Shown: positions 4,866-19,715, counted from the stretch's first letter. The stretch: 35,718 nt of DNA from Candidatus Zambryskibacteria bacterium RIFCSPLOWO2_02_FULL_39_14 (GCA_001824135.1 MHWM01000032.1:1-35718); one strand, 5' to 3'. Notes: generated by a model from the sequence alone, not told the origin. Numbers and translations are program-made.

Positions 4866-5966
4866 TTATGATTCTCTAGCTCTAGAAATAGATAGAATGA
4901 TACCCACTTCAAGCAGAGTAATGAAGAGAGAAGTGCCACCGTGGCTGACAAATGGTAAAGTAATGCCCGACAGTGGAACTACTCCAAGCATGGCACCAAT
5001 ATTGACGAATGCTTGGGAGACTATCATTATAACAATTCCTACTACTACCAGTCTAGCAAAGACTGTAGATGCCACGGATGCAATCTTCAGACCTCGTGTG
5101 GCAAAAAGCACAAATACCAGAAGTAGAAATATTGAACCAACAAAACCAAATTCTTCAGCCGCTACAGCAAAGATTGAATCGCTTACCGGTTCAGGAAGAT
5201 AAGTAAATTTTTGTACACTTTGACCAAACCCGCGACCAAACAATCTGCCAGAACCAATAGCTATAAGAGATTGGCGCACCTGATAACTTGCTCCTAAAAC
5301 ATCAGACTGAGGATTAAAGAAAGTAGTTATACGTTGCATGATATAAGGTCTAGTAAAAGCTAGAAAAGTAATACCTATAAGACCAGCTAAAACAACCATA
5401 AGAACATGGCGCCACTGTCCTCCGGCTGTGATAAACATGGCCAGACCTGCTATGATGATTAAAACAAGATTATCTGTATCCGGTTGTTGCAAGAGAAGTA
5501 CTGCAGAAATAGTAAATAAAATGACAAGAGGTAAGAAACCCCAGTATAAAGTCTTAATCTTATCCTTAACTCCAGAACTCCAAGCCGCAAAGTAAATAAT
5601 GAAGGCTAGTTTCAGTATCTCTGATGTTTGGAAAGTGACAAAACCAAGCGCAATCCAACGCCTAGCTCCAGCATGTTCCAGACCAATACTTGGGAAAAGG
5701 ACTAAAATGTTGAGAATGATAGCGATTACAAATAAATAAAAAGCATATTTTTTCCAGATTTTATAATCCAGACGCGAAGCCACTATCATAGCCAAAGTCC
5801 CCAAAAATAGACCAAAGACCGTCTGGGAGAAAGCAATACTAGAATAATTAGAACTTTCTTTAGCAAGAAGACCTAAAGATGCAGAACTGAATATAAAAAA
5901 ACCAGTCACTATTAAGATAATAGAAATAAATAGAAAAGGTTTATCTACTTTCGCCCTTGACGCCAT
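4866..5966 (-). CDS. ftsW: SEDS-family peptidoglycan glycosyltransferase (FtsW/RodA; FtsW by context)
   Basis: Polytopic membrane protein of about 10 TM helices with SEDS-type motifs (RWIALGFVTFQTSEILKL, QSLIAIGSGRLFGRGFGQS, PEPVSDSIFAV, GVVPLSGITLPFVSHGGTS). Located between mraY and murG. Confidence 0.85.
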   Translation of the reverse strand: MASRAKVDKPFLFISIILIVTGFFIFSSASLGLLAKESSNYSSIAFSQTVFGLFLGTLAMIVASRLDYKIWKKYAFYLFVIAIILNILVLFPSIGLEHAGARRWIALGFVTFQTSEILKLAFIIYFAAWSSGVKDKIKTLYWGFLPLVILFTISAVLLLQQPDTDNLVLIIIAGLAMFITAGGQWRHVLMVVLAGLIGITFLAFTRPYIMQRITTFFNPQSDVLGASYQVRQSLIAIGSGRLFGRGFGQSVQKFTYLPEPVSDSIFAVAAEEFGFVGSIFLLLVFVLFATRGLKIASVASTVFARLVVVGIVIMIVSQAFVNIGAMLGVVPLSGITLPFVSHGGTSLFITLLEVGIILSISRARES

Positions 5967-11257: not shown

Positions 11258-12499
11258 TTATGGGTTCAATCTTTTTACATCCCTTGGTAGATACGTCGCT
11301 TCGCGGACATTTGGTAAGTCAAGAATTTTCATTATAAAGCGACCGGGGCCCACACCACCACCACCGTGCGGAGGACAACCGTAGCGGAAAAAATTTAGAT
11401 AATCTTTGAGCTGTTCAAGATCCATTTTCTTCTCTTTTGCTTGTTTTTCTAGAACTTCTATTCTATGTTCACGTTGAGCCAGAGTAGTAACTTCAATACC
11501 TCGATAAAGTAGATCAGCTCGGCGACTTCTATCAGACCCCTCTTCCAATCGCATATGATAGAAAGCACTCTTAGATTTGTGATATTCAGTAATAAACACA
11601 AATTCGTGTTTATATTCTTTTAATACATATTCAGAAATAGCTCTTTCCTCTTCTGGCGAAAGATCATGTTCTTCTCCCGACTGAACAACTTCAAGTGACT
11701 TAATAATTTTTTTAGCTTCTACTATAGTCATTCTAGGAAATGGACTTACGGGTACAGTTATATTAAGTTCTGGAAAAACTTTTTTGAGCTGTTCAAATCC
11801 AGCAATAATCATCCCCTCTTCTGCATCCATAATGTCGTTATGGTCATTGATGTAAGAAATTTCAAAATCCCAACCTGTAAACTCTGTCATGTGTCTGGTA
11901 GTAAAAGATTCTTCCGCGCGAAATACAGGAGAGACCATGAAGACTCTCTCGAACCCAGATGCTATAGCCATTTGTTTATAAAACTGTGGTGATTGAGCTA
12001 GATATGCCTTGCGGTCAAAATATTTTACTTCAAAAACTTCTGCACCACTTTCAGAAGGCATACTCATCAGAGCTGGAGGATAAAGTTGAATATATTTATT
12101 TTCGTCAAAATATTTACGCCACCCTTTTTCAAACTCTGTCCATACTTTGAAAATTTTTGCTTTCTCTGGTTTTCTAAGATCAAGCCAACGATAATCAAAC
12201 CTTATTGGTGCCTCAGTTTCTTCACTACCCTTTACTACCACAGGTATAGGAAGTTCAGCTGCAGCAACCGATAAAACTTCGATCTTAGTCGGATGCATCT
12301 CACTACCACCCGGAGCTTGGGGAGCATCTTTCATATCTCCTATCACTCTGATAACTGATTCAAGAGATAAATTTTTAGCAGTCTCAAATTCTTTATTATC
12401 TATAGTTACCACCACTTGAGTCAGGCCTTGCATATTGCGAACAATGATAAAAATAATCTTAGACTGAACTCTTAATGCATGTATAAATCCTTGTATCAT
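11258..12499 (-). CDS. aspS: aspartyl-tRNA synthetase, archaeal/eukaryotic-type class IIb (short N-terminus)
   Basis: Class II motif 2 FRAEESFTTRHMTEF, motif 3 PPHGGGGVGPGRF, and the C-terminal LPRDVKRLNP tail typical of type-2 AspRS. The OB domain starts almost at residue 1. The ATG overlaps the trpS stop (ATGA). Confidence 0.82.
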   Translation of the reverse strand: MIQGFIHALRVQSKIIFIIVRNMQGLTQVVVTIDNKEFETAKNLSLESVIRVIGDMKDAPQAPGGSEMHPTKIEVLSVAAAELPIPVVVKGSEETEAPIRFDYRWLDLRKPEKAKIFKVWTEFEKGWRKYFDENKYIQLYPPALMSMPSESGAEVFEVKYFDRKAYLAQSPQFYKQMAIASGFERVFMVSPVFRAEESFTTRHMTEFTGWDFEISYINDHNDIMDAEEGMIIAGFEQLKKVFPELNITVPVSPFPRMTIVEAKKIIKSLEVVQSGEEHDLSPEEERAISEYVLKEYKHEFVFITEYHKSKSAFYHMRLEEGSDRSRRADLLYRGIEVTTLAQREHRIEVLEKQAKEKKMDLEQLKDYLNFFRYGCPPHGGGGVGPGRFIMKILDLPNVREATYLPRDVKRLNP

Positions 12500-13449
12500 G
12501 AAATTTTTAATCCGACTTTTTTCCGGATACTATCCATTTTCTTCTCAATACACTTATGTGCCACATTGCCACCTGTCTTAAGGACATCAAGTACTGCTTT
12601 CTTATCTTTCTTCAACAATTCCCTTTTTTCTCGCATGGGAGTTATAAATTTCTTAAGATCAGATGCTAATATTTCTTTAAGCTCTTTATACTGACCTTTT
12701 TTCTCTGTATAAAGATTATCTAACTCACCCTTATCACGTACAAGAGCATGTATAGCATATACATTCTCCGGTTTCTCTCCGGAAGAATCGGTTACTATAC
12801 CCATTACGGCTTTCTCTATATCTTCATCTGTGGCAAAAAGTTCTATAGTATTACCATAACTCTTACTCATTTTTTTACCATCAATACCCTGTACGGTAGC
12901 GACACTTTCCAATATAAGCGGTTCTGGCAACTTGAAAGTTTCTCCGAATATGCGATTAAATTTCTCTGCTATATCGCGAGTGATCTCAATATGTTGCTTC
13001 TGGTCTTGTCCAACCGGTACCACATCAGCATCTTGTATTAAAATATCAGCCGCCATCAAGACAGGATAGTCAAATAGTCCCACATTAGCTTCTTTACCGC
13101 TTGCCTTAGCATCTTTATATGCATGGGCGCGTTCCAGATACGGCACGGTGGTCAAGCAGTTAAATATCCAAGCAAGCTCCGTCACTTGTGGCACATCTGA
13201 TTGTTTATAAATAACCACATCTTTAGGATCCAATCCTATAGCCAAGTAGTCCAGAAGTACATCTAGAGTATTTTTCTCAAGTTCTTTCTGATTCTGGACA
13301 GTGGTCAGAGCATGCAAATCAGCGATAAATATGTAGCATTTGTAGTCATCCTGCAGTTCTACAAACTGCTTCATAGCTCCAAAATAATTACCTATATGTG
13401 GCCTGCCGGTCGGCTTAACCCCAGAAACCAGTATCTTTTTATCTGTCAT
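12496..13449 (-). CDS. trpS: tryptophanyl-tRNA synthetase
   Basis: GVKPTGRPHIGNYFGA (HIGH), the VPVGQDQKQH motif and KMSKS. Length 317 aa. Confidence 0.93.
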   Translation of the reverse strand: MTDKKILVSGVKPTGRPHIGNYFGAMKQFVELQDDYKCYIFIADLHALTTVQNQKELEKNTLDVLLDYLAIGLDPKDVVIYKQSDVPQVTELAWIFNCLTTVPYLERAHAYKDAKASGKEANVGLFDYPVLMAADILIQDADVVPVGQDQKQHIEITRDIAEKFNRIFGETFKLPEPLILESVATVQGIDGKKMSKSYGNTIELFATDEDIEKAVMGIVTDSSGEKPENVYAIHALVRDKGELDNLYTEKKGQYKELKEILASDLKKFITPMREKRELLKKDKKAVLDVLKTGGNVAHKCIEKKMDSIRKKVGLKIS

Positions 13450-13499
13450 ATAAGCTTTATAATATCAACAAACCTCACTAATTTAAATGCCCCAATTTC

Positions 13500-13530
13500 A
13501 TTCTCTAATTCGCGCGAATTAGGTCATAGA
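13500..13530 (-). promoter_or_regulatory. palindromic operator/promoter module, copy 1 (upstream of trpS, downstream of the lipase-like gene)
   Basis: Perfect 18-bp palindrome CTAATTCGCGCGAATTAG at 13505-13522 (core ATTCGCGCGAAT at 13508-13519). On the - strand it reads tctaTGACCtaattcgcgcgaattaGAGAAT, a -35-like TGAC and a -10-like GAGAAT with the palindrome filling the spacer. It shares 23 identical nt with copy 3. Confidence 0.55.
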
Positions 13531-13550
13531 ACAAAATACTTATTACACAG

Positions 13551-15440
13551 CTAATTATTTATTTTAGCTAAAATTGCTTCAGCCTTAATTACCATACTGG
13601 AGGTAGCCGGATCATCAATCTTATCCTTATTATTGTATTTCTTTACACTTAATATAAATGACTCCAGTTTTTTTATAACTAACTTTTCTGCTAATTTTAG
13701 CTTGAACTCGTGCAATTTCGGATATTTCTTACCAATTGATCTAATGAGTTCCGCTTCTTTCAAAGTTGCAAGAACAAATTTTAAATCATTGTTCAATGAT
13801 TGATATATACCTTTATTATTTATTTTTCCATCTTTGTAATACTCTTCTAGATCAATTAATAACTCATTTACTAAATCAATGATTGACGATTCTTCTAAAT
13901 CTGGTTTTGTTATTATAGGTGCACTTATTTTGACTGGTACATTTTCATAATGATTAACATCAACCACATATTCAATCTTTTCCCCTTCTACAACATTTTT
14001 TTGGACGGTAACAATATTATCATTATCATCGACAAAACTAGCCACAGCCATATGATATTCACCATCTGCGGTACCAATAAGCTCTACCTCATATTCGCCT
14101 GAAAGTCCGTCAGGGATGATTATCATTTTTACTCCATTCGGATCATTCTCGCCAGTATAAATTGCTTCGGGAATCTGATTAGAATCTTTTGTGATTATTC
14201 TGTTTTGCGGATCAGTAATCTTGACTGCCACAGGTGAAGCGAACCAGAATGTTGTTATATTGTTCGGCTCTGTCGGTGGTTCAAAATCACCAACAGGATT
14301 AGGAAGGCCAAGAGCAGAAAAAACTTCTGGAATCGCCATAGTTGGTAACCCCCCATGATTTGAGTTAATTTCCTTTTGTGTTAAGCGCTCATCAATGTCC
14401 CACTCATCAGACTGTGCTCGCACAAGAGGAATAAACACTGCAAATATTTTCTGCCAGAAATTTTGATTACTTCTAGATAACACAGGTCCTATCAAATCAA
14501 ATTCATTTAAGAAAGCACTCGAGAGTAATACCCTATTGTCACCCTCTGGATTATTGCGAATTGGATTTATTGGCTCCGGTATTCCATCAGCCCATAATTT
14601 TGTTTCTAAAGCTGGTCTCTCTACAACAGAAATATTTCCTACTGTGCCAGTGCCAGTACCTGCTATTACGGTGATACGACCAAGCTCCTTCAGATTTTGC
14701 ATACTCTCTGACTCATTAAGATTTTCTAGAAAAGGATTCGTTGCTTCAGTAAGACTACTGTATGGCTTTACATTGTCATTCGAGTCAGAAAGAAAATCAT
14801 ATGTTGGCAGTAATTCTCCTATAGAAGTGATGAACGTGTGAATGGTGTCATAGTAATCAGATGTATTAGCACTGAAAGTAGTCATAAACCAAAGTATAAA
14901 TTTTATACCGTTCTTGTCTGATTGGCTCCAATTTCCAGGAACTTCACCTCCCTCCCATAGGGTGTAAACATCTGACGACCCATAATTTGGTGTACCGAGC
15001 ATTACTAATTGATCCACATCATTTCGGTTTATATAATCTTCACTTTGTATATAGCTCCTAGACACTAGTCCTCCCATACTATGAGCAATGATATTGACTT
15101 TAGTCGAAGAGGAGTTAGCAAGAGCCCTATCTATAGTAGGAATTAAATAATTTATCGCAGAGTCCTCATTGCTTTTTCTCCAGTCATAAAAAGCAATAAA
15201 AAGATTATTGTCAAGTACATACCCCTCTTCAATTAATTCATCAATGAGTTTATCCCAAGTATGATCAGTTGAATGGAAATCCCACGTATCGGGTGTACTC
15301 CTCCCCAGCAATACCGACCAATTCCAAGAACCCATTATTCCTGGAACAAGTACTATGGGCTCTAATGTATTTGCCTGCGCATAGCTCAAAGATGGATTAA
15401 TAGAAGCAATAATTAGAAAACTAAATATTAATTTTTTCAT
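13551..15440 (-). CDS. secreted alpha/beta-hydrolase, lipase/esterase-like (PGAP1/LCAT-like N-domain) with beta-rich and helical C-terminal domains
   Basis: Signal peptide MKKLIFSFLIIASINPSLSYA, an oxyanion-type VLVPGIMGS, and the nucleophile elbow IIAHSMGG (GxSxG). About 250 aa of extra C-terminal sequence follows, with a beta-sandwich-like part and a helical tail. Length 629 aa. Confidence 0.7.
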   Translation of the reverse strand: MKKLIFSFLIIASINPSLSYAQANTLEPIVLVPGIMGSWNWSVLLGRSTPDTWDFHSTDHTWDKLIDELIEEGYVLDNNLFIAFYDWRKSNEDSAINYLIPTIDRALANSSSTKVNIIAHSMGGLVSRSYIQSEDYINRNDVDQLVMLGTPNYGSSDVYTLWEGGEVPGNWSQSDKNGIKFILWFMTTFSANTSDYYDTIHTFITSIGELLPTYDFLSDSNDNVKPYSSLTEATNPFLENLNESESMQNLKELGRITVIAGTGTGTVGNISVVERPALETKLWADGIPEPINPIRNNPEGDNRVLLSSAFLNEFDLIGPVLSRSNQNFWQKIFAVFIPLVRAQSDEWDIDERLTQKEINSNHGGLPTMAIPEVFSALGLPNPVGDFEPPTEPNNITTFWFASPVAVKITDPQNRIITKDSNQIPEAIYTGENDPNGVKMIIIPDGLSGEYEVELIGTADGEYHMAVASFVDDNDNIVTVQKNVVEGEKIEYVVDVNHYENVPVKISAPIITKPDLEESSIIDLVNELLIDLEEYYKDGKINNKGIYQSLNNDLKFVLATLKEAELIRSIGKKYPKLHEFKLKLAEKLVIKKLESFILSVKKYNNKDKIDDPATSSMVIKAEAILAKINN

Positions 15441-15442
15441 AA

Positions 15443-15922
15443 TTATAAATAATTATTACCAATATTGACTAGTGCCGATACAGATAGAAACATGTACAGT
15501 ATAAATAATAAAATTAAAAATATTAGTCCAAATACACCGGTAAGTGATAGGTTTAAAAAAGTAAATTTATCTCTTATTAACTTAGTGCAATAGAAAGCTA
15601 GTAACGGCCATCCAAACATTGTAATAAAGATCATTTTGAAACTTGGACCAGAAAGTACATTTCTCAACCAACCAGTATTTGTAAAACCATTATAGAGCCA
15701 CATATCAATCTTTACCAAAATCACCCATTCCCAAATAAAATAAATAGCAAAAGAAGAAACATAAGCTCCCACTACCTGCTTCCAAGAAACAGGTAAATTT
15801 TTTTTCCATTTCTTGATACCAAGATAAATGAATGGCGAGAAGACAAGCAGGATTGAGATTATAAGTACTCCCCACTCGATCACAAAGGCCAACGTCGGAT
15901 TAGGAGTCAAATACGGTTTCAT
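15443..15922 (-). CDS. hypothetical integral membrane protein (about 4 TM, 159 aa)
   Basis: ORF with four hydrophobic segments and no recognised motif. Its stop is 2 nt before the lipase-like gene start, so the two are probably co-transcribed. Confidence 0.5.
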   Translation of the reverse strand: MKPYLTPNPTLAFVIEWGVLIISILLVFSPFIYLGIKKWKKNLPVSWKQVVGAYVSSFAIYFIWEWVILVKIDMWLYNGFTNTGWLRNVLSGPSFKMIFITMFGWPLLAFYCTKLIRDKFTFLNLSLTGVFGLIFLILLFILYMFLSVSALVNIGNNYL

Positions 15923-15964
15923 TAAAATAAATTATACACCAGAAATATTAGACTGTCATTTTCT

Positions 15965-15990
15965 TTTATTCTACCATTCGCGCGAATTAG
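15965..15990 (-). promoter_or_regulatory. palindromic operator/promoter module, copy 2 (between arsR stop and membrane-protein gene)
   Basis: Core ATTCGCGCGAAT at 15976-15987. On the - strand it reads ctaattcgcgcgaaTGgTAGAATaaa, an extended -10. The 26 nt at 15965-15990 are identical to 16263-16288. A separate perfect TATAAT (15931-15936, - strand) lies 8 nt before the 15922 ATG. Confidence 0.5.
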
Positions 15991-15992
15991 AC

Positions 15993-16259
15993 TTATAAAA
16001 CCCTTAAAAATCGTTTTACTATATCTGGAGCATCTTTATTAATAGAATAGAACATTTGAAGACCGCGTTGTTCTCTTTCCAGAGCATTTGCGTTTGCAAG
16101 AATATATAAATGTTTAGAAGTTGCCTTGAATGATAGCTTTATATGGTCTGCAATCTCTCCAACACTCTTTTCTTTTTCTTTCTGTAAAAAATAAACGATT
16201 AATAGGCGTCGTCTGTTGGCTAGAGCTTTTAAAATTCTTTCTAGTTCTTTTTCTTCCAT
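15993..16259 (-). CDS. ArsR/SmtB-family winged-helix transcriptional regulator (88 aa)
   Basis: LKALANRRRLLIVYFL...SVGEIADHIKLSFKATSKHLYILANANALEREQRG is a typical ArsR HTH. No obvious metal-ligand Cys/His cluster was seen (no Cys at all). Confidence 0.8.
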   Translation of the reverse strand: MEEKELERILKALANRRRLLIVYFLQKEKEKSVGEIADHIKLSFKATSKHLYILANANALEREQRGLQMFYSINKDAPDIVKRFLRVL

Positions 16260-16262
16260 ATC

Positions 16263-16296
16263 TTTATTCTACCATTCGCGCGAATTAGGTCATAGA
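16263..16296 (-). promoter_or_regulatory. palindromic operator/promoter module, copy 3 (arsR promoter)
   Basis: Core ATTCGCGCGAAT at 16274-16285. On the - strand it reads tctaTGACCtaattcgcgcgaaTGgTAGAATaaagatATG. This gives a -35-like TGAC, the palindrome in the spacer, and an extended -10 TGnTAGAAT (16266-16274) only 6 nt before the arsR ATG, which suggests a leaderless or near-leaderless transcript. Confidence 0.6.
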
Positions 16297-16348: not shown

Positions 16349-17830
16349 TTAAGCTACAGGCAACTCCATGTAGAAAGTAGAACCTTGGTTAGGACCAGCA
16401 GATTCAGCCCAAACACGGCCTTTGTGAGCCTCTACAACACCCTTGACAAAAGAGAGACCAAAACCAGTGGAATTAATATTAATCTTTAGTGAGTCTTTGT
16501 CCCTAGCTCCCTTAGTAAAGAGCTTGAGCTTAAGTTCATCAGACAAACCTGCACCAGTATCTTTAACAGAAAAAATGATTTTATTATTTAGATGTTCGAG
16601 ATTCACAATTATACCACCTTCGGAAGTATAGATGACGGAATTGTCTAATAAGTTTCTAAGTGCCTGATAAAGTTGAGCCTTGTCCCCTTTTATCCCATAA
16701 TCACCTTCGGATATATGTATTTCAAAAGATAAATTTTTTTCATTTGCTATTTTTTTCTGCTTTTCTGCAACATCCAGCACAATTTCTTTGAAATCTAGTT
16801 GCTCCATATTATATGTGTAGGAACCTTTATCTATATTTGAAGCATCTAGAAAATCTTTCACAAACCCTACACCCTCTGTCAATGACCTTAAACCTTCTTC
16901 AAGCATTGGTTTAGATTTATCTGTACAGGCCCCATAGTCTGGCTCTGTCAGAAGTTCTGAGAAAATGCTGCGAGATTTAGAAAAATAACCCTTGATCTGA
17001 TGGTTGATGATATGGAGCAAATTGGTTTGCCCCTCGTTGGCTATTTGAAGCTGATTATTTAGCCTCTCTAATGATATCGTTGATGCTCTCCATATATAAA
17101 TAATAATGATTACCAATATAGAGATGATTAGAACTAGAAAACCAATAAATATTAGAAATGGTTGCAATGTCTGTCTAGTTAAAGTAAAGAAATCCTCAGC
17201 CTTGATATCAGTTGCCAAGACTGCAACCACATTGCCAATCTCATCTCTTATCGGTGCGTAACCAGTAAGCACAGTGCCATAATCATCAGTGTACAATTCC
17301 TCACTAGTTAAAGGTCCTTTGTATGCAGCGAAGGCTTCCGGTATATCGACGGCCTCTGGGTAATCTTGCCCAGGCCACTGTAATTTATCTGGTCCATCGG
17401 GTTCTATCTTCCCATCACGATTTACATCTACATATCTTGTCTCATCATTACTTATATTCGCATAAGGATCGATAGAATCGGCGTCTACTACAAATTCTAT
17501 TTGTGTTGGGTCATCCGCCTTCTTGCGAAAAATATACATGAAGACAATATCTTTATTACTGTATTTCGCTCTATTCAATTGGGTAACAACGTGAATCCAG
17601 GCTGGCTTATGCCAATCCTCCTCGACCTTGAGCTCCTCAAGATCCTTTGCATCAACATTAGATGCTACAGTAATAGATATGGTCAACAACCTTTCTCGAA
17701 GATTGTTCGTCAGAAGGTTAACTGTATGTTGATATAAAACTTGTGAGGCAAAGATAACTATAACAATAGAAATGATGAGCAATATGATGGCAAAAGTGAC
17801 AGGACTTGTAAATTTCTTGATTCTGTTCAT
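16349..17830 (-). CDS. sensor histidine kinase with extracytoplasmic Cache-like domain (no cognate response regulator in window)
   Basis: Two TM helices flank about 190 aa containing DDYGTVLTGYAPIRDEIGNVVAVLATDI (Cache-like). The H-box region is LLHIINHQIKGYF (atypical), the N-box LRNLLDNSVIYT, G1 VKDTGAGL and G2 STGFGLSFVKG. Confidence 0.8.
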   Translation of the reverse strand: MNRIKKFTSPVTFAIILLIISIVIVIFASQVLYQHTVNLLTNNLRERLLTISITVASNVDAKDLEELKVEEDWHKPAWIHVVTQLNRAKYSNKDIVFMYIFRKKADDPTQIEFVVDADSIDPYANISNDETRYVDVNRDGKIEPDGPDKLQWPGQDYPEAVDIPEAFAAYKGPLTSEELYTDDYGTVLTGYAPIRDEIGNVVAVLATDIKAEDFFTLTRQTLQPFLIFIGFLVLIISILVIIIIYIWRASTISLERLNNQLQIANEGQTNLLHIINHQIKGYFSKSRSIFSELLTEPDYGACTDKSKPMLEEGLRSLTEGVGFVKDFLDASNIDKGSYTYNMEQLDFKEIVLDVAEKQKKIANEKNLSFEIHISEGDYGIKGDKAQLYQALRNLLDNSVIYTSEGGIIVNLEHLNNKIIFSVKDTGAGLSDELKLKLFTKGARDKDSLKININSTGFGLSFVKGVVEAHKGRVWAESAGPNQGSTFYMELPVA

Positions 17831-17852: not shown

Positions 17853-19715
17853 TTATACATCCAATAAGTCCTTTATATCACTCTTATCTATCTCCCAGAG
17901 AAAGTTCGTTAATTTGGGCCCAGATTTTTTACCAAATAATAATTGGTATAAATTTTGGAAAAAGATGCGTTGATTCGCTATATTTCTTTCCTCGGTAGCA
18001 TTAGCACTCTTCGGCAAAGCGTACAGTAGAGTGATAAATTTATTCAAATTTAATTTTGATTTACGGTCTAGTAATTTATTTAATTTTTTGATTAATTTAA
18101 TATCATCATCAGTCATACTCACTATATACTTCACATTTGGTACCTCTAGAAGGGTGTGAGAATATGCTGGATTGAGATGTATAAAACGCGATTTTTTATC
18201 TTTAATCAAATCCAAGTCTAAATAAATATTATTAGAATTTATATTATCATGGCTTGAATCGCTTGAATTAGATAGTTTCAACTTCAACAATTTTCCAATG
18301 TCCTTCTCTTGTATTTTAGTAAAGATGTCATATTTCTGCTGGTGAAAATTTAATGTTTTTTTATTGAGAATTGGTTTGACAATCCATTTGTAAATATCAC
18401 GCTGAGGTAATGTCGGCATAGTAATGATTTTCCCATTTATACTTAAGCTTGATGCTCCGTACCCATACCCTCCATAAGGATTGATGCCCCTTTCTACACC
18501 ACGAGCATGCAGATGAGTATTGTGAATAAAAGAGGATTTATCATGAAGTAATTTTCCGTGATAAATTTTACCAATCAATTTATTTATATAATTACTTGTC
18601 CCGTAGAGAGTCACGTACATCGCATTCATCAGGTAACGATCATTTTCGAAGTATGATGCAAGTTCAGAATTATCTGCATACTCCTGAACAAAAATTGTAG
18701 GAGCAAATATTTCGTTATAATTTCCTCCACATCTAAGCGGTTTACAAATTATTGTTGGTTCAACTATAGCTTCACTCGTTCTAATAACCCCTTTCGTAGA
18801 AGAATCAAGCCATTCCCTATTTTTTATAAGGAAATCCTCAATTCTAACCAAGTCGTCTGGGTCGCTAATTGGACCAACTCTAGAAGATTTATTGTTATAA
18901 GAACCGATTTTAACTTTACTTAATCCTTCTCTCAATTGTCGCAAGAAATTTGGTAAAATATCTTTATGTACAAGAACTGCATTTGGAGCGGCACAGTCTT
19001 GCCCTTGATTATAGAGTCCTAGAGTTAAGACTGCTTCAATAGCTTTATTTAGATTGGCATCCTTACTGACTACTACTGGATTATGACCAGCTCCATTTGA
19101 AATAAATAGAGTTCGTTTGTCAAAAATAAACCGTAATTTACTTGCATGCGATGGAAGTCCAGTAAAAATAACTGCTTCAGTAGCAGGTATGCTTTCTTTA
19201 GTTTTTGGGTTCACTAATAATGCAGATCTTTCTCTCAAGAATTCGCTCCTCTGCTTCTGCGAAACAAAAATATTTGGAAATAATTTTTTAATTTCCAGAA
19301 GATCCAGCATATCTTGAAAAAAAAGCATCATGCTCTGTGGAATTCGGAAATGCACTTCACTTGCCATCAAAGATGGAACGATGACAAAACACGAAAATGC
19401 ATAGAGTGGCTGATTTCTTGGTAGGAATGAAGCGACTGCTCCAACTCTCAAGAAAAAAAATTTTTTATTTTCCCTGAGGTTTCTAAGTAAATCTAAGGCT
19501 CTATTTACCTCATCTTGTACAACCTCAAAACTCTCATATCTAAGCAAAATATCAGTTAGCTTCTCAAAATGAACTTCAATAAGATCAGCTAGTTGTTTAG
19601 CTTTTTTATCTACTTCAAAAAAATCAATTTTTCTGTAAGGAGAGAAATACTTACTTGAAACTACTTGTTTCTTTAACACGGGTTTTCTCCGGACTGAAAG
19701 TAATGTGTTCACCAT
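17853..19715 (-). CDS. aldehyde-dehydrogenase-superfamily protein (reductase/acylating-like) fused to a C-terminal module resembling the C-terminus of class I lysyl-tRNA synthetase
   Basis: ALDH-like landmarks: VIFTGLPSHASKL (cf. FTGS..G), ISNGAGHNPVVVSKDANL (cf. ELGGK.P.IV..DAD, with no Glu at the general-base position) and NQGQDCAAPNAVLV (catalytic Cys motif GQ.C). The last roughly 90 aa, ...RIFFQNLYQLLFGKKSGPKLTNFLWEID..., resemble the LysK C-terminal ...[17 protein letters not shown]... motif recalled from memory. Confidence 0.55.
   Translation of the reverse strand: MVNTLLSVRRKPVLKKQVVSSKYFSPYRKIDFFEVDKKAKQLADLIEVHFEKLTDILLRYESFEVVQDEVNRALDLLRNLRENKKFFFLRVGAVASFLPRNQPLYAFSCFVIVPSLMASEVHFRIPQSMMLFFQDMLDLLEIKKLFPNIFVSQKQRSEFLRERSALLVNPKTKESIPATEAVIFTGLPSHASKLRFIFDKRTLFISNGAGHNPVVVSKDANLNKAIEAVLTLGLYNQGQDCAAPNAVLVHKDILPNFLRQLREGLSKVKIGSYNNKSSRVGPISDPDDLVRIEDFLIKNREWLDSSTKGVIRTSEAIVEPTIICKPLRCGGNYNEIFAPTIFVQEYADNSELASYFENDRYLMNAMYVTLYGTSNYINKLIGKIYHGKLLHDKSSFIHNTHLHARGVERGINPYGGYGYGASSLSINGKIITMPTLPQRDIYKWIVKPILNKKTLNFHQQKYDIFTKIQEKDIGKLLKLKLSNSSDSSHDNINSNNIYLDLDLIKDKKSRFIHLNPAYSHTLLEVPNVKYIVSMTDDDIKLIKKLNKLLDRKSKLNLNKFITLLYALPKSANATEERNIANQRIFFQNLYQLLFGKKSGPKLTNFLWEIDKSDIKDLLDV

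Follow-up and report, generated by a model that had tools for sequence, protein, structure and literature searches.

ArsR-family proteins are homodimers that bind pseudo-palindromic operators 1:1, and the residues of the recognition helix set their specificity (bioRxiv 10.64898/2026.05.15.721447). The system described here resembles that of SmtB, CzrA, CadC and SqrR in having a small winged-helix protein of the same hidden Markov model (HMM) families and fold, and in having a pseudo-palindrome of roughly 30 bp over the promoter of its own gene; an autoregulated ArsR-family protein with such an operator is a known kind of system. It was found in a 35,718-nt stretch of DNA from Candidatus Zambryskibacteria bacterium RIFCSPLOWO2_02_FULL_39_14 (MHWM01000032.1:1-35718; the whole stretch is called the window), in which three copies of the palindrome ATTCGCGCGAAT lie at an arsR gene and its neighbours. 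To our knowledge, almost nothing is known about gene regulation in bacteria of the Candidate Phyla Radiation (CPR), a largely uncultured group with very few transcription factors, and full-text literature searches found no prior description of the motif or of a Patescibacteria/CPR ArsR that is leaderless or has a palindrome; the papers retrieved with the motif itself all concerned E2F sites. From sequence comparisons we conclude that the three repeats are probably operators of the ArsR-family protein encoded between copies 3 and 2, a reading to which we assign a probability of roughly 0.78.

The repeats and their association with arsR

An earlier note on this DNA, made from the sequence alone, had reported three copies of ATTCGCGCGAAT, and an exact search found exactly three in the window, at 13508-13519 (copy 1), 15976-15987 (copy 2) and 16274-16285 (copy 3), compared to none across 100 dinucleotide-preserving shuffles, which rules out chance or low complexity as the source of the copies. 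Copy 1 widens to the perfect 18-mer CTAATTCGCGCGAATTAG at 13505-13522, 23 nt are common to copies 1 and 3 (13508-13530 and 16274-16296) and 26 nt to copies 2 and 3 (15965-15990 and 16263-16288), so that the extents given in the note were reproduced along with its count. Its statement that the window holds no other copy also stood: a search allowing up to two mismatches returned the same three sites, and a weight matrix made from about 170 related sites and run over the whole window scored the copies at 25.9 to 36.7 bits (copy 1, 36.7; copy 2, 25.9; copy 3, 32.7) and found no degenerate fourth copy in the 35.7 kb, the next-best position reaching 3.2 bits, inside the range of shuffled sequence.

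The 12-nt CG-core palindrome is real but is only the core of a longer site. When TWATTCGCGCGAATNNNAGAAT was searched for in one genome of each species, at least 118 blocks were returned, those listed coming essentially all from Patescibacteria metagenome-assembled genomes of many classes; the element is not confined to the window but belongs to a family that extends throughout the Patescibacteria and includes many sites distant from arsR, some of them inside coding regions. Aligned, the sites form a pseudo-palindrome of about 32 bp with the oriented consensus TATTCTCTAATTCGCGCGAAT(AGG/GGT/AAG)AGAATAG, or TATTCTCTAATTCGCGCGAATAGGAGAATAG over 143 sites, made up of inner half-sites ATTCG..CGAAT and outer arms (T)ATTCT...AGAAT(AG). 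At arm positions 7-9 one half usually reads TAG and the other AGG, GGT, AAG or AGT, the two being anti-correlated (z = -4.5 and -5.2), and the gene-facing arm reads GAAT(AGG/GGT/AAG/AGT)AGAATAG. Of the intergenic asymmetric sites, 118 have the variant arm facing a gene start no more than 250 nt away and 28 the TAG arm, and the distances from intergenic site to start peak at 15-35 nt. The AGAAT that had been described as a -10-like element is the outer arm of this palindrome, although at copy 3 the same arm doubles as the extended -10 of arsR.

A palindrome of this kind might act not as duplex DNA read by a protein but as an RNA or single-stranded DNA hairpin, serving as terminator, processing site or translational operator. 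Such a role would fit the perfect 34-nt palindromes found in some genomes (L019 and L043, ACTATTCTCTAATTCGCGCGAATTAGAGAATAGT), the terminator-like position of the 3' site after the arsR stop codon, and arm position 8, which is always a purine opposite U and compatible with A-U or G-U pairing in the sense strand. However, over the 143 oriented sites neither pairing (76.4% of cells paired versus 76.1% in shuffles, with 76 of 500 shuffles as high) nor covariation (0.088 versus 0.082) exceeded that of shuffled sites, and columns 12/25 were unpaired in 120 of the 143. RNA folding gave window copies 2 and 3 no advantage over shuffled sequence (z = +0.39 and +0.82), the stem is not followed by a U-tract, Rfam held no match for the site, and copy 3, which ends 6 nt before the start codon in a leaderless layout, would stay untranscribed. 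A hairpin function was rejected on the pair-count and arm-symmetry tests, the folding of the window copies and the Rfam search, and we give it next to no weight.

The site travels with arsR. The loci compared carry L-numbers, L001 being a contig 99% identical to the window with the same arrangement. ArsR homologues bearing the flanking site are 50-73% identical and come from many Patescibacteria, under names such as Zambryskibacteria, Nomurabacteria and Minisyncoccia; these names place the source organism in the Parcubacteria group of the Patescibacteria (CPR). Five ArsR loci (61-72% identical) with differing neighbours all show a pair of sites about 300 bp from each other, the first 5' of arsR and the second at the 3' end of the gene. 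Downstream of arsR, L005 and L007 have trpS, L002 has an LCAT lipase, L009 has TspO and L011 a convergent gene. Among 80 metagenome loci that make up an unbiased sample, picked by ArsR protein similarity alone and with the motif ignored, a 5' site (within 130 nt upstream) was present at 73 of 77 loci, a 3' site at 77 of 80, and both at 71 of 77. The search of related genomes that the earlier note had proposed finds site and arsR together across Patescibacteria, where 'site, arsR, site' is a conserved unit of which window copies 3 and 2 are the 5' and 3' members.

The geometry of this unit is also kept. The dyad of the 3' site falls exactly 5 nt past the arsR stop in 19 of 36 listed genome loci, and in those loci the left palindrome arm consists of the last arsR codons and the stop (..TCT ATT CTC TAA followed by TTCGCG..). 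The palindrome overlaps the 3' end of arsR, and the DNA site constrains the tail of the protein. The ArsR C-terminus and stop set by the overlapping palindrome read ..S-I-L-stop or, from AAT TCG CGC GAA TAG, ..N-S-R-E-stop (L005:10262-10299, L011:10245-10280); in the window, arsR has an earlier in-frame TAA two codons ahead of the canonical TAA of the motif. On the 5' side, 20 nt separate the dyad from the arsR ATG in 7 lineages, and TG(G/A)TAGAAT-N6-ATG is kept at arsR in L002, L005, L007, L029, L038 and L061. In other lineages the site stands 28-94 nt upstream of arsR, with a distinct TGnTATAAT 6-8 nt ahead of the ATG.

The recognition helix of the protein co-varies with the centre of the site. 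Three positions of the helix pattern LSF-x-x-TS-x-HL were compared with the six central bases of the flanking sites for 68 distinct ArsR proteins of the unbiased sample. Helices of the form K/R-A..S-K go with CGCGCG (64 of 85 sites, and CGAGCG at 15 more), K-S..S-R with CGTGAG (12 of 15), N-A..S-K with GTAGCG (7 of 8), R-S..S-K with CGTACG (6 of 6) and K-A..S-R with CGCACG (4 of 4); the window ArsR has the signature K-A..K and the site centre CGCGCG. Where a locus has extra sites, these bear the centre specific to that locus, and the classes span several similarity groups (four for K-S..R, three for R-S..K). Because the helix residues co-vary with the site centre, ArsR very probably reads the site. 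The CGCGCG run that had been singled out as conspicuous is not invariant: the centre varies by lineage along with the protein, and CGCGCG would be the variant read by the K-A..K helix of the window's lineage. A '12-2-12 operator with uncontacted centre' was dropped, since the centre co-varies with the recognition helix.

The window protein is a bona fide member of the ArsR/SmtB family by HMMs, alignments and fold. It matched Pfam PF01022 HTH_5 at 37.4 bits (cutoff 22) and NCBIfam NF033788 at 66.9 (cutoff 55), and its sequence aligns with Lmo1102 (E 3e-9), PagR, HlyU, NolR, YgaV and CzrA. An AlphaFold2 monomer model built on a 100-sequence alignment (predicted local distance difference test, pLDDT, 93.1; predicted template modelling score, pTM, 0.81) shows a winged helix (H3-27, H33-40, H44-56, E60-65/E68-73, H79-87), with the recognition helix LSFKATSKHL at residues 42-51, and its top Foldseek matches in the PDB are HlyU, CadC, NolR, SqrR, CzrA and PagR, at template modelling (TM) scores of 0.65-0.72. 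The window ArsR contains no Cys and just two His, H39 and H50, of which H50 belongs to the recognition helix, and the C-terminal helix APDIVKRFLRVL lacks the His/Glu ligand set of alpha5; a conserved Cys is likewise absent from alignments of 20 and 100 ArsR sequences. Without Cys and without alpha5 ligands, the protein is therefore not a metal sensor.

Taken together, these results support the proposal of the earlier note that the repeats are operators for a dimer of the adjacent ArsR: the site brackets arsR homologues in nearly all loci, the helix co-varies with its centre, and a homodimer on a pseudo-palindromic operator is what the palindromic site and this covariation would predict. Each dimer would read the site centre through its recognition helix, and at copy 3, which takes in the promoter spacer and the extended -10 TGGTAGAAT, bound ArsR would occlude RNA polymerase; we consider autorepression of arsR moderately probable. 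Copy 2 would place ArsR about 60 nt upstream of the start of the membrane-protein/lipase operon and copy 1 about 64 nt upstream of that of the trpS-aspS operon, positions from which it might modulate both, by repression or activation alike. Of the control over these two operons that had been proposed, the link to trpS is real and ancestral, whereas control of the operons is suggested by position. The reading would account for a motif common to arsR, the trpS/aspS tRNA synthetase operon and the secreted lipase operon in the window.

Several observations weigh against this interpretation. The covariation classes are partly clade-structured, hence the number of independent events is uncertain, and ArsR has no recognisable ligand site for any signal. 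Copies 1 and 2 are centred about -58 to -64 from the probable starts, a placement that does not lend itself to simple steric repression. The genes behind non-arsR sites are heterogeneous, and no coherent functional regulon was found among their 230 proteins (123 clusters) among the matches listed. Finally, many sites lie deep in coding regions, 190-350 codons from the next gene, and a plain promoter-operator model leaves these unexplained.

Promoters, neighbouring genes and the history of the copies

Gene calls agree with the order that the earlier note gave around the repeats. The flanking genes are all on the minus strand and encode, in turn, a histidine kinase, ArsR, a 159-aa membrane protein, an LCAT-like lipase, TrpS, AspS, ScpA and further housekeeping proteins, the membrane-protein and lipase genes forming a unit that spans 13551..15922 (Table 1).

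Table 1. Positions of the predicted operators, promoters and genes in the window
Feature	Position	Strand	Remarks
Copy 3, 5' operator of arsR (predicted)	16264..16295	-	Dyad 16279/16280, 20 nt before arsR ATG
Extended -10 of arsR promoter, TGGTAGAAT	16266..16274	-	Made by proximal arm of copy 3
arsR, 88-aa ArsR/SmtB-family winged-helix protein	15993..16259	-	Pfam, NCBIfam, AlphaFold2, Foldseek
Copy 2, 3' operator of arsR (predicted)	15966..15997	-	Overlaps arsR end (stop codon 15995-15993); dyad 15981/15982
Sigma-70-like promoter ATGACA-17-TATAAT of membrane-protein/lipase operon	15931..15959	-	Just downstream of copy 2
159-aa membrane protein	15443-15922	-	Between arsR and trpS
629-aa secreted LCAT/PGAP1-like lipase	13551-15440	-	Pfam LCAT and PGAP1 matches
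Copy 1, third operator (predicted)	13498..13529	-	Dyad 13513/13514, about 64 nt before trpS ATG (13449)
trpS promoter TTTAAA-17-TGaTATTAT	13459..13487	-	Promoter scan; downstream of copy 1
trpS	12496-13449	-	Pfam tRNA-synt_1b; first gene of downstream housekeeping operon
aspS	11258-12499	-	Pfam tRNA-synt_2

Each copy had been placed in the spacer of a promoter, and this held for copy 3, which lies inside the core promoter of arsR, but not for copies 1 and 2, which lie upstream of better promoters. In copy 3 the gene-proximal arm is intact (GAATGGTAGAATAA) and TCTATGACC stands in place of the distal outer arm; the promoter scan gave ATGACC-16-TAGAAT with an upstream TG, its -35-like ATGACC hexamer at 16293-16288, and 6 nt separate TGGTAGAAT from the ATG at 16259-16257. 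Copy 2 has its own TGGTAGAAT at 15968-15976, and its dyad lies about 60 nt before the membrane-protein ATG (15922); the region's best promoter-like match is the ATGACA-17-TATAAT downstream of it, with 11 of 12 positions and a -10 that ends 8 nt before this ATG. Copy 1 has an intact proximal arm (TTAGAGAATGAA) and a distal flank, TCTATGACC, that is the same as in copy 3, and the -10 of the trpS promoter behind it, with TG preceding the second hexamer, ends 9 nt before the trpS ATG; the L005 counterpart of this element is TGGTATGAT-N7-ATG.

With its -10 only 6 nt before the ATG, arsR would be transcribed into a leaderless mRNA, as had been proposed. TGnTAGAAT-N6-ATG is kept in seven lineages, and such a layout fits the style of the window: Shine-Dalgarno sequences are nearly absent (a weak match at 3 of 34 minus-strand gene starts), and operon-first genes have TGnTAnnnT boxes ending 6-9 nt ahead of their start codons (those at 5966, 11218, 13449, 15922, 16259, 20069, 30898 and 32557, among others), which suggests that leaderless mRNAs are widespread in the source organism.

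The earlier note had offered a second reading of the repeats, as scars or att-like boundaries of an inserted cassette, together with a comparison of relatives that lack the inserted genes. Both arsR-flanking copies are present in the cassette-free L005, L007, L009 and L011, and the cassette-bearing L002, in which the lipase lies between arsR and trpS, and L035, in which the arsR-membrane-lipase unit occurs without trpS, have no copy distal to the lipase. Because the repeats predate the cassette and exist without it, they are not insertion scars, and the scar reading did not survive this comparison. The position of LCAT-type lipases around arsR varies, downstream in L002 and upstream in L007. 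At 12 of the 122 arsR loci trpS follows arsR directly, and at another 3 it lies no more than 3.5 kb away; in L005 and L007 arsR is directly upstream of trpS-aspS, with the arsR 3' site about 62 nt before trpS in a layout like that of the window, and the adjacency of arsR and trpS is clade-specific and, in the window's clade, ancestral. Since L002 and L035 lack a distal copy, copy 1 is a lineage-specific extra, and the non-consensus 9-nt distal flank TCTATGACC that it has in common with copy 3 suggests that it arose by duplication. Copy 1 keeps a site ahead of trpS now that the membrane-protein and lipase genes part arsR from trpS.

Two further genes lie upstream of arsR. An orphan sensor histidine kinase (16349-17830, minus strand) stands directly upstream, and no response regulator is encoded close to it. 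Kinases homologous to it precede arsR at 11 of the 122 arsR loci; ArsR itself lacks a receiver domain. Beyond the kinase, a 620-aa protein (17853-19715, minus strand) resembles aldehyde dehydrogenase over residues 178-364 alone, with scores far under equivalog cutoffs, has long unmatched N- and C-terminal parts, and is kept beside the kinase in L001 and L005.

Sites away from arsR and inside genes

All three copies in the window are at arsR and its neighbours, and elsewhere the site extends well beyond this gene: an ArsR homologue is present in only 37 of 118 genome blocks among the matches listed, and in the same set the genes behind non-arsR intergenic sites include trpS (9 times), a 575-596-aa zinc-ribbon protein (6 times) and the LCAT lipase (3 times). 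The zinc-ribbon protein is unannotated and has no NCBIfam match; it carries N-terminal CxxC...CPxC motifs and starts 8-25 nt after the site, in at least five genomes and at six sites (L043:2994-4781, L048:2822-4555, two copies in L058, L102 and L103). A metagenome contig, Ga0193751_1000051 (L184:700-4650), holds ten sites in 5.2 kb, three of them in tandem at 71 and 80 bp spacing and the others 40-57 nt upstream of successive small co-directional open reading frames (ORFs), several with TGnTATAAT-N6-ATG, an arrangement that resembles a series of operator-promoter-gene modules. The motif, in some cases together with arsR, also turns up in records that bear the titles 'uncultured Gammaproteobacteria' or 'Acidobacteriaceae' (L042, L045, L051, L058, L059, L065, L079, L099, L118 and L127); these are probably mislabelled bins or contaminant contigs.

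Many sites are read in-frame inside conserved protein genes, among them those for MnmA (at least 7 genomes), Dus, TatD, a GT1 glycosyltransferase, UvrC, a class-V aminotransferase, DinB, FemAB, Sua5, AlaRS, Mur ligases and TGT. In the 31 in-frame sites listed, 21 read (S)LIRANxRI, 9 FSNSRELEN and 1 the third frame, and the orientation is uniform: in 17 the TAG arm comes first (5') and the variant arm second (3'), and none is reversed, though the reverse has two stop-free frames. Across the 7 mnmA genomes listed the site DNA is 87-93% identical, compared to 36-52% for the flanking coding sequence. The downstream genes differ among the 7 mnmA loci, which rules out the site as a promoter-operator for the gene behind mnmA. 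One mnmA has two in-frame sites 97 bp apart, one reading LIRANKRI and the other FSNSRELEN (L122:7395-7527).

These sites bear on whether the repeats are a small mobile or recombinogenic palindromic element, akin to repetitive extragenic palindromic (REP) elements, miniature inverted-repeat transposable elements (MITEs), Rickettsia palindromic elements or attC/att sites, with arsR a mere passenger. In the window, all three copies are in direct orientation and bound both arsR and the membrane/lipase unit, and the flank TCTATGACC points to a duplication; the ten sites between small ORFs in L184 and the TGT site of L101, which falls within 11 aa (33 nt) inserted in comparison with 2ash, would also suit such an element. 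However, the sites occupy orthologous positions over deep divergence (arsR 5', the arsR stop codon, the same mnmA linker), and those in MnmA and TatD replace existing residues with a length change of 0-2 aa (in L119 the site swaps MnmA linker residues with no change relative to 2hma, and TatD of L053 differs by 2 aa from 1j6o). Hairpin-preserving covariation is lacking and the arms are anti-correlated at positions 7-9, gene calling over about 10 kb on either side of arsR in L001 gave neither an integrase nor a transposase, and the cassette of L002 and L035 comes without a distal copy. Copies are also few, the 35.7 kb containing 3 and a total of 214 kb of sequence flanking arsR a further 23, and 2.9 million viral contigs gave 0 matches, on which a phage or mobile origin was rejected. 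A mobile element is thus very unlikely compared to an operator of ArsR.

A second alternative accepts that ArsR binds and holds that the sites act chiefly at the level of the chromosome, as centromere-like or nucleoid-organising sites or as polar transcription roadblocks, the promoter overlap at arsR being only the autoregulatory part. A parS site is located inside spo0J, and here too the binder's own gene has a site at its 3' end. The retention of in-frame sites in housekeeping genes far from downstream starts, the conservation of the mnmA site, the heterogeneity of the target genes and a Foldseek match of the ArsR model to the centromere-binding protein AspA (TM 0.66, root-mean-square deviation 2.2 over 71 residues) are all compatible with this. 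AspA nevertheless ranks under about 28 chains of ArsR/SmtB regulators, no partition ATPase lies beside arsR in the window or in L001 to L012, and intergenic sites are directed to gene starts (118 versus 28) at promoter-like distances. We consider a chiefly chromosome-level role improbable, and prefer the reading of the repeats as operators of ArsR.

The intragenic sites may still have roles of their own, with roadblock, internal promoter and chromosome organisation as candidates. We tentatively raise a broader version of the operator reading, which we hold to be possible though rather doubtful: ArsR would be a phylum-wide global DNA-binding factor, its site written under selection, in one preferred orientation, into the frames of core genes (mnmA, dus, tgt, tatD, uvrC, dinB, alaS and mur ligases), where the intragenic sites would function as polar roadblocks, internal promoters or chromosome-organising sites.

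Significance and comparison with known systems

A small conserved regulator and its probable 32-bp site are defined well enough here for testing with synthetic DNA and recombinant protein, and the natural helix and centre variants predict the outcome of specificity swaps. For annotation, 'site, arsR, site' marks the locus, and sites elsewhere point to candidate target genes. If the intragenic sites are functional, they would represent a new mode of action for a repressor-family protein and a DNA-level constraint that shapes protein sequence; if the factor is indeed global, it would amount to a regulatory layer undescribed for ArsR-family proteins and a first general cis-regulatory code for CPR bacteria.

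Compared to parS/ParB and to AspA of pNOB8, the likeness lies in a palindrome that is partly in coding regions, including the end of the binder's gene, and in the ArsR-like fold of AspA; the difference is that no ParA-type ATPase stands beside arsR and that most intergenic sites are near, and oriented to, gene starts. Rickettsia palindromic elements are reportedly palindromic repeats of 100-150 bp inserted in-frame into protein genes. The sites described here are similar in being palindromes read in-frame in housekeeping genes, in loops or linkers (MnmA, TGT) and only in stop-free frames, but they are about 32 bp long, often stand in place without added length, keep orthologous positions over deep lineages, show no hairpin covariation and are tied to a cognate DNA-binding protein.

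By sequence and fold the closest solved or named relatives are PagR, HlyU, NolR and SdpR, which are likewise short (88-100 aa) and without metal sites, at an identity of only 23-33%. The match to the NCBIfam autorepressor family of SdpR is weak, and the SdpR, BigR and PagR scores are far under their cutoffs; HlyU and BigR sense through Cys, which the window ArsR lacks. We know of no intragenic in-frame operators or phylum-wide invariant site for PagR, HlyU, NolR or SdpR. The window ArsR differs from SmtB, CzrA, CadC and SqrR in having neither Cys nor alpha5 His/Asp/Glu, and would thus be no metal or persulfide sensor; in this system, moreover, a second operator is fused to the stop codon, sites occur in coding regions, protein and site are kept phylum-wide, and each half of the directional site has two GAAT-type repeats. 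The covariation of helix and centre runs parallel to the specificity rules of the ArsR family (bioRxiv 10.64898/2026.05.15.721447). What is new compared to all of these systems is the phylum-wide pair of protein and site, the operator fused to a stop codon, the directional site, and the oriented in-frame copies inside core genes.

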